Positions 4,272 through 9,074 of a stretch of DNA of 39,848 bases are shown piece by piece. The stretch spans positions 1-39,848 of IMG/VR virus record IMGVR_UViG_3300035365_000038. One strand, written 5' to 3'. Position 1 is the first letter of the stretch. Every line of letters starts with the position of its first letter. Under the pieces are notes generated by a model, which worked only from the letters and a program-made list of their open reading frames with translations, was not told the origin of the DNA and made no database searches. This stretch comes from a virus. Made by a program: the position numbers and the translations under genes.

Positions 4272-4485
4272 CATGAGACACTACAAACTAAGATTAGCCA
4301 TTAATGCGATAGCAGTAATATTGATTATTATTAGCAAGATAATAATCAGAAAGAAGCGAAAAATAGTATATTTCAACGCCAGCACCGGACAGGCCCGGTA
4401 TAGGATTGTATATTATACGCTGATATTTATTCCAATTTTTTACAGAACTAAAACAATACCAAACAAGAAGTATGCAGTACAGTAA
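4255..4485 (+). CDS. possible small membrane protein, doubtful
   Basis: 76-aa ORF spanning an otherwise non-coding 200-nt AT-rich gap. It has one hydrophobic stretch (AINAIAVILIIISKIII). The region also holds inverted repeats and may be regulatory instead. Confidence 0.25.
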   Translation: MTYPFSMRHYKLRLAINAIAVILIIISKIIIRKKRKIVYFNASTGQARYRIVYYTLIFIPIFYRTKTIPNKKYAVQ

Positions 4486-4933
4486 CAAAGATTATAACCA
4501 GGCACTACATGACAGATATAAGGCCCTTTCAGTTAAGCAGCCTTATGCCGAATATATAGCCAGCGGAGAGAAGACAATCGAAGTCCGCAGTAAGAGCACA
4601 AGTTACCGCGGGGAGTTATTAATTTGCGCCAGTAAGGACGGAAAACCGGACCCCAACGCCCCGGGATTTGCTTGTACGATAGCTTTCGTGGATCTGTACG
4701 ACTGTAAACCGCTAACCAGCTTAACCGACGAAGAGTGGAAAAGAACAAAACTGCCGGAATATCTAGTTCAGAAGCTTAAGCAGCCGGGAAGGGGATATGG
4801 CTGGTTCCTTAAGAACCCCAGGAGGGTAATAGAATTTCCTGTAAAGGGACAGTTAGGTATCTTTAACCTAGTATACACAAAAGGGGTTATAATGGAGTAT
4901 CCCAGGATCTTAAAAGACCCAGTAATAGAATAA
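4472..4933 (+). CDS. ASCH (PUA-like) domain protein
   Basis: LSVKQPYAEYIASGEKTIEVRSKSTSYRGELLICAS is the typical ASCH N-terminal signature. Confidence 0.75.
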   Translation: MQYSNKDYNQALHDRYKALSVKQPYAEYIASGEKTIEVRSKSTSYRGELLICASKDGKPDPNAPGFACTIAFVDLYDCKPLTSLTDEEWKRTKLPEYLVQKLKQPGRGYGWFLKNPRRVIEFPVKGQLGIFNLVYTKGVIMEYPRILKDPVIE

Positions 4934-4940
4934 GTACAAG

Positions 4941-4974
4941 GCCGGAAGAAAATAGCTTCCGGCTTTGCCTGTTT
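4941..4974 (+). terminator. intrinsic terminator-like hairpin
   Basis: GCCGGAAG-aaaatag-CTTCCGGC followed by TTTGCCTGTTT. It lies directly after the stop of 4472-4933. Confidence 0.55.
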
Positions 4975-4995
4975 AAAAAAATAATTGTATTTTTG
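4964..4995 (+). promoter_or_regulatory. Bacteroidota-type promoter for the accessory operon
   Basis: TTTG (4964-4967), 20-nt spacer, TATTTTTG (4988-4995). The first ATG is at 5027. Confidence 0.5.
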
Positions 4996-5026
4996 TCCTA
5001 TACATTGACATTTAAAATATAAAATT

Positions 5027-5281
5027 ATGGCGGATAAATTTTGCAGAAGATTAGAAGAGGTTGAAGCCGTACAGGCAAAGGCTAACAACCTAGAAGAATT
5101 AAGAAAATTTGCCGGAGCCGTGCAACGCGTAGAAGGCCGGACCAAACAAGCTCCCGGATATTATACCGTGCCAGGGCTAAACACAGTTTTATGGGATGGA
5201 AGTTGGCTAGTTAAGCACCCAAACGGCCGCCTGGAGATTAAGAGCAGCCAGCTATTCCACCGAGAGTATGAACCGAAATAG
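5027..5281 (+). CDS. hypothetical protein (84 aa)
   Basis: First ORF after the promoter. No motif recognised. Confidence 0.6.
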   Translation: MADKFCRRLEEVEAVQAKANNLEELRKFAGAVQRVEGRTKQAPGYYTVPGLNTVLWDGSWLVKHPNGRLEIKSSQLFHREYEPK

Positions 5282-5456
5282 TTATTTACCCCGGTGCCAT
5301 TGGAATAAGCAACACGGCCGGAGAAGGAAGGCAAAAAGGCCCTTTGAGACAATAGAAGAAGCAAACCAATACATAGAACAAAGGAACCTACAAACGAAGT
5401 ATAGAAGTTACAAATGCCACGTATGCGGGAAATACCATATAGGGCATAGAATTTAA
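5268..5456 (+). CDS. small basic protein with a C-terminal zinc-ribbon-like CxxC..H..H
   Basis: ...YKCHVCGKYHIGHRI at the C-terminus. Confidence 0.5.
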   Translation: MNRNSYLPRCHWNKQHGRRRKAKRPFETIEEANQYIEQRNLQTKYRSYKCHVCGKYHIGHRI

Positions 5457-5469
5457 TAAAACAAGAAAT

Positions 5470-5982
5470 ATGAAAAAGTACATTGGAACAAAACAAGTAG
5501 AGGCAATGCCTATGACACTAGGCGAGTACATTAAAAAGAGCGGAAGAAACCCGTACCAAAACAGTCAGGATATGCACGGGGAAAATGAACCGGGCTATTT
5601 GGTAAGATATAAAGACGGTTACGAAAGCTGGTCGCCCAAAGATGTTTTTGATGAAACCTACAGGGAAATTAAAGAAGAAACCGAAAATATGACATTCGGA
5701 GACGCAATCGAAGTTCTGAAACAGGGCGGAGCCATACGCAGAAAAGGATGGAACGGTAAAGGCCTGTTTGTAATTAAGCAGGTCCCGGCACATATTGAAG
5801 CCGATGTTATCCCTAAGATGCAATCGTTACCGCAAAACGCAAAAGATCTCATTTTGAAGGGCAAGGGCTTTATTGATTATACAAGCCAATGCCTCATTTA
5901 TAACGAGGCTACAGGCCGGGCAGATTCATGGGTGCCGAGCATTTCTGACGTATTTGCGGAGGATTGGGAAATAGTATTATAA
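5470..5982 (+). CDS. two-domain protein with a C-terminal DUF2829 domain (family of Thoeris anti-defence protein Tad2)
   Basis: Residues 74-170, MTFGDAIEVLKQGGAIRRKGWNGKGLFV...SWVPSISDVFAEDWEIV, match the DUF2829 hallmark (F-G-x-A-l-x-a-l-K-x-G, R-x-GW-N-G-K, D-l-x-AEDWEIV). The N-terminal YIGTKQVEAMPMT...GYLVRYKDGYESWSPKDVF module is often fused to it. Confidence 0.75.
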   Translation: MKKYIGTKQVEAMPMTLGEYIKKSGRNPYQNSQDMHGENEPGYLVRYKDGYESWSPKDVFDETYREIKEETENMTFGDAIEVLKQGGAIRRKGWNGKGLFVIKQVPAHIEADVIPKMQSLPQNAKDLILKGKGFIDYTSQCLIYNEATGRADSWVPSISDVFAEDWEIVL

Positions 5983-7440
5983 CCTACCGACCAGGGGCCG
6001 GAAAGGATAAGACAGCGTAAGTTACGGCTTGCGCTGTCAGCATTTAAATTAGAATATAAGAAAGAGTATCACAAAAATCCAAGAAAGATAACGCCGAAGC
6101 AGTTAGAGCAGCTTAAGGCGAACATAGAAGAGCTGGGAGACTTATCCGGAATAGTTCACGATCTTAACACAGACGAAATTATAGCCGGAAACCAGCGAAG
6201 CAAGGTTATAGACATAGCCAAGTGCGAAATAGTAATAACAGAGAAGTTTGACACCCCAACGCCGCAGGGAACTGTAGCCTGGGGATATGTTATTTTTGAG
6301 GGGCAGAAGCTTAATTATCGCCAAGTAAGATGGGACGACCGACAGCGGGAGAAAGCAAACATAACGGCCAACGCTTTAGGCGGTGATTGGGACTACCAAA
6401 TTCTAAAATCAGAATTTAGACTAACCGATTTAAGTAATTGGGGCCTTGATACAATAGAAAAAGAATTAAAAGAAGAAGTTACAAGAAAAGAAATCCAAGA
6501 GGATAAATTCAAGATTTGCCAAACGATAAAGACAGATATAAAAGAGGGAGATTTATTTCAAATTGGGGAGCATAGATTAATCTGCGGAGACAGTAAAAAA
6601 ATAGAGGTCTATCAAAATTTACTTAATGGGGAAAAGGTGGATTTAATAATAACTGACCCACCCTATAACGTAGATTATGGAGAAAAGAACCGAGCATTAA
6701 ATAAAAATCTTGACGGTGGAAGATTTAGTAATCCTTATGATATAAAAAATGATTGCATGAAAAGCAATGAATTTTATGATTTCTTGAATAAGGTATTTAC
6801 TAATTTGCATTGTTTTATATCTGATAAATGCCCGTTATATGTTTTTTATGGGCATGTGGAGACTTTAAACTTTTATCATAGCATAGAAGATGCCGGATTT
6901 TGCATAAAACAAATGCTGGTATGGGTCAAAGAACATTTTGTAATAGGTAGGCAAGACTACCAGTGGAAGCATGAGCCTATAATATACGGGTGGAGTAAAA
7001 ATGGGAAACCGCATTATTTTTGTGGCGAAAGGAATCACACTACAGTAATAGACAATTCAGAGGATTTACGAAAAAGAAGTAAACCCCAACTTATAGCGCT
7101 TATTAAGGAGATGATGAACAACACAAAAAGTGATGTTATTTATTGCAATAAGCCACAAGCAAGCAGCGAGCACCCCACAATGAAACCCGTTAAGTTATTT
7201 GGGGAGCTTATACAAAATAGTTCCATCGAAAACGATATAGTAATAGATGCTTTTGGTGGTAGTGGTACAACGCTTATGGCGTGCGAGCAGCTAAAAAGAA
7301 AAGCCCGATTAATAGAGCTTGATCCGGTTTTTTGTCAAGTTATTATAGACCGAATAAGACAATTTAATCCAGGCATAAAGATTATCAAAATTAAAAATAT
7401 ATACGAAGGAAGCAAGAAAAATGAGGATTCAGAGGATTAA
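5983..7440 (+). CDS. ParB-like N-terminal domain fused to a beta-class DPPY (N6-adenine type) DNA methyltransferase; translation start unresolved
   Basis: HKNPRKITPKQLEQL...IIAGNQR is a ParB-like fold. IITDPPYNV is motif IV, and VIDAFGGSGTTLMACEQL is motif I placed C-terminally. The frame is open from 5983, but the first ATG/GTG/TTG is the GTG at 6637. Confidence 0.75.
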   Translation, partial: PTDQGPERIRQRKLRLALSAFKLEYKKEYHKNPRKITPKQLEQLKANIEELGDLSGIVHDLNTDEIIAGNQRSKVIDIAKCEIVITEKFDTPTPQGTVAWGYVIFEGQKLNYRQVRWDDRQREKANITANALGGDWDYQILKSEFRLTDLSNWGLDTIEKELKEEVTRKEIQEDKFKICQTIKTDIKEGDLFQIGEHRLICGDSKKIEVYQNLLNGEKVDLIITDPPYNVDYGEKNRALNKNLDGGRFSNPYDIKNDCMKSNEFYDFLNKVFTNLHCFISDKCPLYVFYGHVETLNFYHSIEDAGFCIKQMLVWVKEHFVIGRQDYQWKHEPIIYGWSKNGKPHYFCGERNHTTVIDNSEDLRKRSKPQLIALIKEMMNNTKSDVIYCNKPQASSEHPTMKPVKLFGELIQNSSIENDIVIDAFGGSGTTLMACEQLKRKARLIELDPVFCQVIIDRIRQFNPGIKIIKIKNIYEGSKKNEDSED

Positions 7441-7478
7441 AAAAATATAGCCTGTGAAAACAAGCTAAAATGAGGCGA

Positions 7479-7545
7479 TTTGTGGCATTTTCTCTCACAA
7501 ATGGGTAGATTATACATTCTACAAAAGAAAACCGTTTGTGAGAGA
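7479..7545. promoter_or_regulatory. nested inverted repeats in the methyltransferase/HTH intergenic region
   Basis: ATTTGTG (7479-7485) pairs with CACAAAT (7496-7502). TCTCTCACAAA (7491-7501) pairs with TTTGTGAGAGA (7535-7545). The two pairings overlap and are mutually exclusive. Confidence 0.4.
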
Positions 7546-7589
7546 TTTTCTATTAAAATAACTGTAACTAAATAAAAGAGAGTAACAAC

Positions 7590-7856
7590 ATGAGTCTAAA
7601 GACAAATAACCCCCGGAATATAGCTAACAAGAGGACAGGAGGCAAGAGAACGGTGGAACAGAGAGAAGCGGACAAATGCTTCTGCGCCGATTTATTTGTA
7701 AAGGGGTATACATACAGGCAGATAGCAGAGCGCCTCAATACACACAACCGAGAAAACGGACTTACTTATGAGCTAACTTACAAAACAATATTTTGCGATA
7801 TTAATCAAGTATTAGTAGAGTGGAAAAAAGAACGCTTTGAAATGGAGAAAAGTTAA
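7590..7856 (+). CDS. small HTH protein (88 aa)
   Basis: KGYTYRQIAERLN is a typical helix-turn-helix core. The gene lies upstream of the packaging genes. Confidence 0.55.
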   Translation: MSLKTNNPRNIANKRTGGKRTVEQREADKCFCADLFVKGYTYRQIAERLNTHNRENGLTYELTYKTIFCDINQVLVEWKKERFEMEKS

Positions 7857-7900
7857 GGGTTTACTTCCCGGTGAATTTGATAACTCAAAAGCAGAATAAC

Positions 7901-8479
7901 ATGATCAAGTTAAACGAACTAAGAGATAAAGCCTACCAAAACGCAGTTGTTCACGGCTGGCATGACGAAGATAAGAGTGATAGTCACTGGCTTTGTCTGG
8001 TAATATCCGAGCTGATGGAAGCAGTGGAAGCTGACCGGAAGAACAGACACGCAAGTGTAAAGTTTTTTAATCATAGCATTGATTACGCTTTGCGTGAGTT
8101 GCATCTTACGAAACAGGATTTCAGTAATTATTTCTTCAACTCATACAAAGAAAATATAAAAGACAGTGTAGAGGAAGAACTTGCAGATGCTTGTATCAGG
8201 ATTTTAGATCTTGCCGGATTAAGGAATACAGATTTAGATGATTTTGACTATGAAGGAAGCGACACTATGGATTATTCTGGAATGTCCTTTACAGAGGCAA
8301 TGTTCCACATTAGCAGGATGGCCACAGATGAATTTTATATAGGTGAATTCATCGCATTGCTTTTGAACGAAATATTCGCTTTTTGCCAAGATCGGGAAAT
8401 TGACATCTTCTGGTATATCGAGCAAAAGATGAAGTATAATGAACTTAGGCCATACATGCATGGAGGCAAAAAGTACTGA
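7901..8479 (+). CDS. MazG-like all-alpha nucleoside triphosphate pyrophosphohydrolase
   Basis: NAVVHGWH...LCLVISELMEAVEADRK and EEELADACIRILDLAG...KMKYNELRPYMHGGKKY match the MazG-like pattern. I prefer the ATG at 7901 to the track's GTG at 7871. Confidence 0.65.
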   Translation: MIKLNELRDKAYQNAVVHGWHDEDKSDSHWLCLVISELMEAVEADRKNRHASVKFFNHSIDYALRELHLTKQDFSNYFFNSYKENIKDSVEEELADACIRILDLAGLRNTDLDDFDYEGSDTMDYSGMSFTEAMFHISRMATDEFYIGEFIALLLNEIFAFCQDREIDIFWYIEQKMKYNELRPYMHGGKKY

Positions 8480-8536
8480 TTGAATCTTTTAATAGACAGA
8501 GTAATTTTACTAGGTGGATTTTTTTCTGCCCAGTAT

Positions 8537-8567
8537 TTTGCTTTTTATACCTGAAATCATATTTTTG
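8537..8567 (+). promoter_or_regulatory. Bacteroidota-type promoter for the packaging/tail operon
   Basis: TTTG (8537-8540), 19-nt spacer, TATTTTTG (8560-8567). ATG at 8586. Confidence 0.5.
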
Positions 8568-8585
8568 CATAAAATAATATAGGCT

Positions 8586-9074
8586 ATGAAGGTAGGAAGA
8601 AAAGGAAAGTTTGAGGAACTTGCACCCAAGATACTAAAACTCATCCGGGAAGGCTGCTCATTCAAGGAGACTTGTCAGATCGTAGGACTGAACGAAGGAA
8701 CTTTTTATCGCTGGAAGAGCGAGAATGAGGAGTTTTGCGAGGCAATTAAAAACGCAATGGACGAAAGGCAGGATGAGGTTGTAGGCACATTGGAGAAGTC
8801 TCTGCTTAAGAAGGCCAATGGCTACACCGTCACAGAATGCAGAACGGAGTATGCGATGTGTAAGGGCAATCTGAAGAAGATAAAGGAGTCCAAGACGGTT
8901 AAGGAGATAGCACCGGATACTGGGGCATTGGTCTTTGCCTTGACAAACCTTGCTCCTGAAAAGTGGCAGAACAAGCAGCGTCAGGAGATCTCAGGAGAAG
9001 GTGGAGAGCCATTTAAGATTATCGTCACGGACAACGAAGATGCCGATCTTATCAAGAGAATGACGGAAAAATGA
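8586..9074 (+). CDS. terS: terminase small subunit
   Basis: N-terminal HTH (GCSFKETCQIVGLNEGTFYRWK). ...LTNLAPEKWQNKQ is a typical TerS pattern. ATGA overlap with TerL. Confidence 0.8.
   Translation: MKVGRKGKFEELAPKILKLIREGCSFKETCQIVGLNEGTFYRWKSENEEFCEAIKNAMDERQDEVVGTLEKSLLKKANGYTVTECRTEYAMCKGNLKKIKESKTVKEIAPDTGALVFALTNLAPEKWQNKQRQEISGEGGEPFKIIVTDNEDADLIKRMTEK

Follow-up and report, generated by a model that had tools for sequence, protein, structure and literature searches.

The window analysed here is the whole 39,848 bp of a virus record, from a gut phage of Bacteroidales type, that is complete, has direct terminal repeats and carries nearly all of its genes on the + strand. Just upstream of the terminase genes lies a block of accessory genes, in which an ASCH-domain protein is followed by two small ORFs, the Tad2 gene that is the subject of this report, a ParB-like/N6-N4 methyltransferase, a small protein and a pyrophosphatase:

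4472-4933, + strand: ASCH-domain protein, 5' of the Tad2 gene (PF04266, E 1.6e-7)
5268-5456, + strand: 62-aa protein, just 5' of the Tad2 gene
5470-5982, + strand: two-domain gene (N-terminal β-domain and Tad2), ATG start, TAA stop at 5980-5982, 170 aa
5983-7440, + strand: ParB-like and N6/N4 DNA methyltransferase frame, the same frame as the Tad2 gene, open directly after its TAA
7871-8479: pyrophosphatase (phrog_9236, E 1.7e-57)
8586: terminase small subunit
9071: terminase large subunit

The 170-aa protein matches PHROG 872 (function not known) from end to end (E 7.5e-44), and its two-domain form is therefore an already established phage protein family; a search for near-length homologues returned 3675 of them. 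The closest relatives are found in prophages of Bacteroides, Parabacteroides, Prevotella and Segatella, and two-domain relatives further off in Clostridia, Campylobacter, Moraxella and others. The whole protein had no matches in NCBIfam or PADLOC searches, and Megablast of positions 4400-8500 against isolate phages matched nothing.

The first-pass annotation had placed the gene next to a methyltransferase and a MazG-like enzyme, and the neighbours are as it described, namely the N6/N4 DNA methylase at 6637-7440 and the pyrophosphatase. The 62-aa protein encoded just 5' of the Tad2 gene has a CxxC-containing, zinc-ribbon-like C-terminal end. Between the ASCH gene and the small ORFs lies a G+C-rich hairpin (4941-4963) with an 8-bp stem (GCCGGAAG...CTTCCGGC), for which the scan reported only a minus-strand terminator-like site, and such sites are not commoner than in shuffled sequence. 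A scan of positions 4700-8700 for sigma-70 promoters and terminators found no more sites than in shuffles.

The methylase part of the downstream frame (6637-7440; PF01555, E 2.8e-31; phrog_498) begins with a GTG at 6637, the first start in the frame, which is preceded by 218 codons without ATG, GTG or TTG. The frame is nonetheless homologous to full-length ParB-methyltransferases from residue 4-6 on, and the FP_Epona enzyme has its Met1 aligned with codon 5983. No other junction of the genome is start-less in this way, the remaining same-frame junctions all having a start within 1-2 codons. Genome-wide recoding of TAA was rejected as an explanation: TAA ends 19 of the 43 long ORFs, the other same-frame junctions have starts, and there are no tRNA genes. 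Nor was a natural Tad2-ParB fusion found; the C-terminal extension of one relative (P0138) is unrelated, and in 80 related viral loci the methyltransferase is never downstream. The start-less frame could reflect the loss of a start codon, non-canonical initiation, termination-reinitiation, read-through at a low level or an error of assembly.

The C-terminal Tad2 domain

The protein is divided into three segments:

5470-5667, + strand: N-terminal module, residues 1-66, a small β-rich domain (AlphaFold2; hhalign to the RyR Tad N-domain)
5668-5688, + strand: short KEETEN-rich linker, residues 67-73
5689-5979, + strand: Tad2 domain, residues 74-170, of the long-insertion (HgmTad2/SptTad2) type (PF11195)

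The first-pass annotation had read the C-terminal 97 residues as a DUF2829/Tad2 domain and a candidate signal sponge, and had proposed a Pfam search and a comparison of an AlphaFold model with Tad2 structures. Profile, fold and pocket residues all support this reading. The motifs that it quoted are present: YIGTK (residues 4-8), GYLVRYKDGYESWSPKDVF (42-60), FGDAIEVLKQGG (76-87), RRKGWNGKG (90-98) and DVFAEDWEIV (160-169). Pfam PF11195 (Tad2-like, formerly DUF2829) covers residues 74-169 along the entire profile (1-73 of 73) with an E-value of 1.4e-20 and a score of 74.1 bits against a cut-off of 25 bits, which is far beyond chance. A phmmer search of PDB sequences matched SptTad2 (8wjd; 7e-16), HgmTad2, which is AcrIIA7 (8kbi; 1.8e-12), and SPO1 Tad2 (8sme; 3.9e-12), as well as pdAcrIIA7 (9kzr) and ModTad2 (9eib).

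The AlphaFold2 model of the protein, a monomer prediction built on 34 homologues, reached a pLDDT of 90.7 and a pTM of 0.56, values that correspond to two confident domains of uncertain relative orientation. In Foldseek comparisons, the C-terminal domain matched SptTad2 (8wjd) with a TMt of 0.83 (rmsd 1.9 Å, E 1e-8), HgmTad2 with a TMt of 0.80-0.85 (8kbj 0.85; rmsd about 2 Å) and 8v3e with a TMt of 0.89; all 24 significant hits were Tad2 chains, and the solved Tad2 chains as a whole lay in the range of 0.80-0.89. The domain consists of an N-terminal helix and a five-stranded antiparallel sheet with a β2/β5 insertion, and superposes on the solved structures. Since the alignment to SptTad2 runs without gaps across 96 residues, the domain is assigned to the long-insertion subtype, and its β2-β5 insertion falls within the size expected of that subtype (about 35-41 residues); 300 of 362 clade members share the 61-residue span from W94 to W154. 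Membership of the Tad2 family is hence confirmed by profile, fold and pocket residues.

The internal ATG at 5689 to which the first-pass annotation pointed encodes residue 74. Translation also or mainly from this codon would yield a stand-alone 97-aa Tad2 like HgmTad2, with whose start Met the residue aligns, and position 74 is Met in 200 of the 203 clade sequences aligned at that column. However, the equivalent Met is internal in SPO1 Tad2 ('KMSFGEAL'), coliphage N4 gp49 has a Cys and some close relatives an Ile or Leu at this position, and purifying selection acts strongly on the N-domain, which thousands of proteins carry joined to Tad2. The internal Met of SPO1 Tad2, the Cys of N4 gp49 and the conserved upstream domain mean that the ATG at 5689 is no evidence for a separate product, and we consider such a product improbable.

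Predicted ligand pockets

HgmTad2 has two independent sites, one for gcADPR and one for cyclic dinucleotides, whose contacts are known from mutagenesis and crystals (PMC10680739). Using phmmer alignments and the residue roles reported for HgmTad2 (PMC10680739), we mapped both sites onto the protein and counted the conservation of each residue in 335 unique Tad2 domains of the clade:

5749-5757, + strand: W94-N95-G96 in loop L12, aligned with HgmTad2 W21/N22/G23, which bind the gcADPR diphosphate
5779-5781, + strand: Q104, at the position of the guanine-reading R31 of HgmTad2/SptTad2 (Q in 328 of 335 clade domains)
5923-5925, + strand: D152, at the position of HgmTad2 N85, the second guanine reader (D in 296 of 335)
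5938-5949, + strand: S157-I158-S159-D160, aligned with HgmTad2 S90/T92/D93, which contact the gcADPR adenine and ribose

The gcADPR site of HgmTad2 comprises W21, N22, G23, W87, L88, S90, T92 and D93 (PMC10680739), and its equivalents here are W94, N95, G96, W154, V155, S157, S159 (T→S) and D160. Conservation within the clade is high: W94 is found in 333 of the 335 domains, N95 in 299 and G96 in 277, while W154 (= W87), just upstream of S157, is found in 331, S157 in 316 and D160 in all 335. The hydrophobic residues that line the adenine differ from those of HgmTad2 (M76→Y144, A78→E146, T82→R150, V84→A151).

The cyclic-dinucleotide site of HgmTad2 is formed by R31, N85, S47, F70 and L36, of which R31 and N85 read guanine (PMC10680739). 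Two of the four contacts validated by mutagenesis (R31, N85, S47, F70) are lost here, R31 and N85 having given way to Q104 and D152; S119 (= S47; 323 of 335), Y137 (= F70; 321 of 335) and I109 (= L36) are kept. The replacement of R31/N85 by Q104/D152 is itself conserved in the clade. On account of these two changes, classing the protein among the cGG binders is not warranted. The second, cyclic-dinucleotide-type pocket is probably functional, since the clade preserves the residues that line it, and its preferred ligand is perhaps other than cGG. Given the altered pocket residues, ligand specificity cannot be read off the sequence.

This leads to the question as to which signal is the main target. 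A gcADPR-type molecule is the reading that we prefer, gcADPR being the modal rather than the certain function here, as other members of the Tad2 family bind His-ADPR or tracrRNA. It is also possible, if doubtful, that the main target is a CBASS cyclic dinucleotide or the His-ADPR of type II Thoeris, and that the key site is the remodelled second pocket (K103/Q104, I109, S119, Y137, D152). The long insertion, the gapless alignment to the cGG-binding SptTad2 and the conservation of the second-pocket lining in >88 % of the 335 clade domains fit this alternative, but the residues of the gcADPR pocket are conserved at least equally well. Li et al. make a case for CBASS as the system that matters to the Tad2 proteins of Bacteroides phages (PMC10680739), and ModTad2 provides a precedent for the binding of His-ADPR; against a CBASS target, R31 and N85, which HgmTad2 requires for binding cGG/cGAMP (PMC10680739), are replaced in this protein. 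In the host family, to which the B. ovatus MAG belongs, 101 genomes were sampled; 19 of them contain ThsB-type TIR domains and seven the CD-NTase domain SMODS. TIR domains are thus the commoner of the two, and as both occur, producers of either kind of signal are plausible targets.

The Tad2 fold has also been reported as a tracrRNA-binding anti-CRISPR, only in forms without an N-terminal head (PMC13133391). An AcrIIA7-type function, in which tracrRNA would be sequestered in the basic groove of the tetramer, is suggested by relatedness in sequence and fold to AcrIIA7 (8kbi, 9kzr) and by the conservation of three of the five RNA-binding basic residues (K84, K92 and K97, equivalent to K58/K66/K71 of pdAcrIIA7). 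The other two, K93 and R101, are replaced by Q118 and D126, so that the groove lacks part of its basic residues. The protein also carries a 73-residue N-terminal extension, and in pdAcrIIA7 the N-terminal head abolishes RNA binding and Acr activity (PMC13133391). Furthermore, Li et al. could not reproduce the Acr activity (PMC10680739). We regard this function as very improbable, and return below to the preferred gcADPR-type sponge.

The N-terminal leader domain

Residues 1-66 are predicted to fold as β2-5, β9-16, α17-24, a variable loop (25-40), β41-46, β52-56 and α57-63. Modelled on its own with AlphaFold2 (pLDDT 88), the domain is small and β-rich, with a pair of short helices, and its invariant residues are Y4, I5, G6, K8, A12, P14, G42, V45, Y47, Y51, S53 and W54. 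Neither the single sequence nor a 20-sequence profile of the N-domain matched Pfam, NCBIfam or PDB sequences, and Foldseek against the PDB gave no hit at E <= 0.001. The wide VIA-align search reached a best Z of 3.2, to Tudor, chromo and CarD-like small barrels, a weak and uninformative Tudor/SH3-like resemblance.

A match was obtained with hhalign, in which the N-domain profile aligned to residues 5-82 of phiA41 gp10 (probability 97.5 %, E 7.7e-12, 74 columns), a protein 93 % identical to CB1 gp68 (RyR Tad). Judged by this profile alignment, the N-domain is homologous to the N-terminal domain of RyR Tad. In the crystal, gp68_N is a domain-swapped dimer with β1 inserted in the sheet of the partner, and gp68_N alone has no anti-Thoeris activity (10.64898/2026.06.04.730250). 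In our monomer model β1 (residues 2-5) folds back on its own sheet, the swap being known only from this preprint crystal. A β1-swapped dimer would account for the invariant YIGTK strand at the extreme N-terminus, and a role in dimerisation is in keeping with the even-numbered oligomers that all characterised fusion partners form. From the homology and the swapped dimer, the N-domain is read as a dimeric staple.

The YIGTK and DGYESWSPK motifs are strongly conserved from Bacteroides phages to those of E. coli and Clostridium, and this conservation, which exceeds that usual for a simple dimeriser, counts against the staple. A separate binding function of the N-domain is a real possibility, if less likely than a dimeric staple. 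In its fullest form, which we think rather unlikely, the N-domain would itself be a ligand-binding sponge or a module that binds a host protein, and the whole would be a two-signal inhibitor like the Acb4-Tad2 and Acb4-Sequestin fusions. Sequestin was found by exactly this logic of fusion to known sponges, and the N-domain has fusion partners from at least four sponge families. As in nucleotide pockets, the residues that it keeps invariant are aromatic, basic or acidic (Y4, K8, Y43, Y47, D49, Y51, E52, W54, K57). Stand-alone ORFs of 57-90 aa that consist of the domain occur as well; many of these apparent stand-alone forms, however, come from very short contigs and may represent truncated genes.

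A further candidate identity was tried and rejected. The 'GYISWSPK' motif had first been taken for that of Acb4 (PF13876), a family with a dsRBD-like α-β-β-β-α fold, but the N-domain gave no PF13876 match even at E 10. In one relative that carries both (P0330), PF13876 (77-151) lies apart from the N-domain, which occupies 1-62 and about 160-210. The motif belongs to the leader domain that stands ahead of Acb4 or Tad2, as in crAssphage gp41 and N4 gp49. The title of PF13876 (Acb4 family) names N4 gp49 (1474-1956), which actually ends in a Tad2 domain; crAssphage gp41 (1501-1950) ends in an Acb4-type domain and shares the unannotated N-terminal leader with N4 gp49.

The N-domain profile matches 3481 longer proteins, and 129 isolate-phage records carry the domain. 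The first-pass annotation was right that the Tad2 domain is fused to an N-terminal module; the fusion is not unusual, since it recurs in PHROG 872, in thousands of metagenomic proteins and in N4 gp49. In BFVD and the ESM Atlas, the N-domain fold is N-terminal in proteins that end in Tad2, Sequestin, Acb2/Tad1-hairpin or RyR domains, and in some relatives a Sequestin (PF21825) and/or WDGH (PF25311) domain is inserted at the position of the linker. The architectures found are:

N-domain and Tad2: the gene at 5470-5982, coliphage N4 gp49
N-domain and Acb4/PF13876: crAssphage gp41
N-domain, Acb4, N-domain and Tad2: P0330
N-domain and Sequestin, with or without Tad2
N-domain and WDGH, with or without Sequestin, followed by Tad2
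N-domain and RyR: phiA41 gp10

Three relatives illustrate the fifth of these (P0013, P0133 and P0156), WDGH following the N-domain and preceding either Tad2 alone or Sequestin with Tad2. By the same fusion logic that revealed Sequestin, WDGH is a candidate further sponge or anti-defence domain. P0330 (298 aa), which consists of a leader, Acb4, a second (partial) leader and Tad2, resembles two leader and sponge genes fused head to tail. Finally, a metagenomic relative of 352 aa (P0122) has an HNH_3 and AP2 homing-endonuclease-like segment in frame within its Tad2 domain, between 'RRKGW' and 'FVIKQVPAHI', where it replaces the N-G loop of the gcADPR pocket; this segment may represent a mobile insertion, or the ORF as called may run through an intron.

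Proposed function and comparison with known systems

Taken together, these data make it likely that the gene encodes a cytoplasmic two-domain counter-defence sponge, in which a Tad2 tetramer sequesters gcADPR-type signals and the N-terminal domain acts as a dimerising leader. The Tad2 domain (74-170) would most likely assemble into a homotetramer, like all solved Tad2 proteins. TIR-derived gcADPR-type (Thoeris) signals would be held in two pockets at the inter-dimer interface, formed by W94/N95/G96, W154, S157, S159 and D160, and this sequestration would keep the host effector from activation. The long β2-β5 insertion would form a second, independent cyclic-dinucleotide pocket, as in HgmTad2 and SptTad2, with Q104/D152 instead of R/N as the putative base-reading pair. 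The N-domain (1-66) would most likely form β1-strand-swapped dimers that staple pairs of protomers, and is best seen as a generic oligomer-stabilising leader that stands ahead of many sponge domains and is not itself a sponge. What the analysis establishes is membership of the family, the fold, the conserved pocket residues and the homology and varied fusion partners of the N-domain, whereas tetramer formation, the identity of the ligand, a swap of the N-domain in this protein and any anti-defence phenotype are inferred.

Tad2 sponges are a major phage route past Thoeris and CBASS immunity, and one more gut-phage member leaves this picture unchanged: the gene is a confirmed Tad2-family sponge gene of common two-domain architecture, an ordinary member of a well-studied family. 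Two features may be of wider use. A single unannotated N-terminal domain recurs before Tad2, Acb4, Sequestin, RyR Tad and WDGH, from crAssphage to coliphage N4, and merits a family entry of its own. Furthermore, the conserved alternative signature of the second pocket in a large clade of Bacteroidales-phage Tad2 proteins offers a concrete handle on how sponge specificity evolves. It is conceivable, if speculative, that the clade-specific Q104/D152 pocket captures a nucleotide signal unlike the cGG/cGAMP of the solved long-insertion Tad2 proteins and, separately, that the leader has a role beyond dimerisation. If true, the YIGTK...DGYESWSPK module would be a universal phage-sponge leader with a further site for a ligand or partner, or a gate on the sponge pockets.

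The first-pass annotation had held that no Bacteroidota-phage member was characterised, which is incorrect. HgmTad2 (= AcrIIA7) of Bacteroides phages, SptTad2 of Sphingobacterium and SaTad2 of Salegentibacter have all been assayed, and the first two crystallised (PMC10680739), while ModTad2 of a Myroides prophage has been solved with His-ADPR bound (PDB 9eib). SptTad2 (Sphingobacterium thalpophilum; 8wjd) and HgmTad2 (human gut metagenome; 8kbi-8kbm, 8wjc) share with the protein its Pfam family, fold and long β2-β5 insertion at 32-34 % identity, the W/N/G, W and S-x-T/S-D residues of the gcADPR site, S47 and the aromatic F70 of the cyclic-dinucleotide pocket, and Bacteroidota hosts. Both are stand-alone proteins of about 100 aa, whereas the protein described here adds a 73-residue N-terminal domain and linker; R31/N85 correspond to Q104/D152 and D34 to A107, and the residues lining the gcADPR adenine differ. 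The founding member, SPO1 Tad2 (gp34.65; 8sme/8smf/8smg), has the same family, tetramer core and gcADPR pocket motif, but comes from a Firmicutes phage and has a short insertion, no cyclic-dinucleotide pocket and no N-terminal domain. In pdAcrIIA7 (Phocaeicola dorei; 9kzr), likewise from a Bacteroidales host, a Tad2 core also bears an activity-modulating N-terminal appendage, but this is a 48-residue two-helix head unrelated to the β-domain, and it is the head-less form that is reported to bind tracrRNA.

With respect to the leader, RyR Tad (Pectobacterium phage CB1 gp68; 10.64898/2026.06.04.730250) has a homologous N-domain and the same order of an N-terminal β-domain and a C-terminal gcADPR-binding sponge domain, the latter being an all-helical RyR Repeat12-like dimer and not Tad2. 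N4 gp49 (YP_950527, 160 aa) combines N-domain and Tad2 in an identical architecture, its full-length sequence being 33 % identical (BLASTP 2e-26), and is encoded in the N4-like anti-signalling hotspot adjoining the vRNAP gene. It differs in its short, SPO1-like β2-β5 insertion, in a longer N-domain loop ('PDSKPNHEQFRGY') and in the Cys at the Met74 position.
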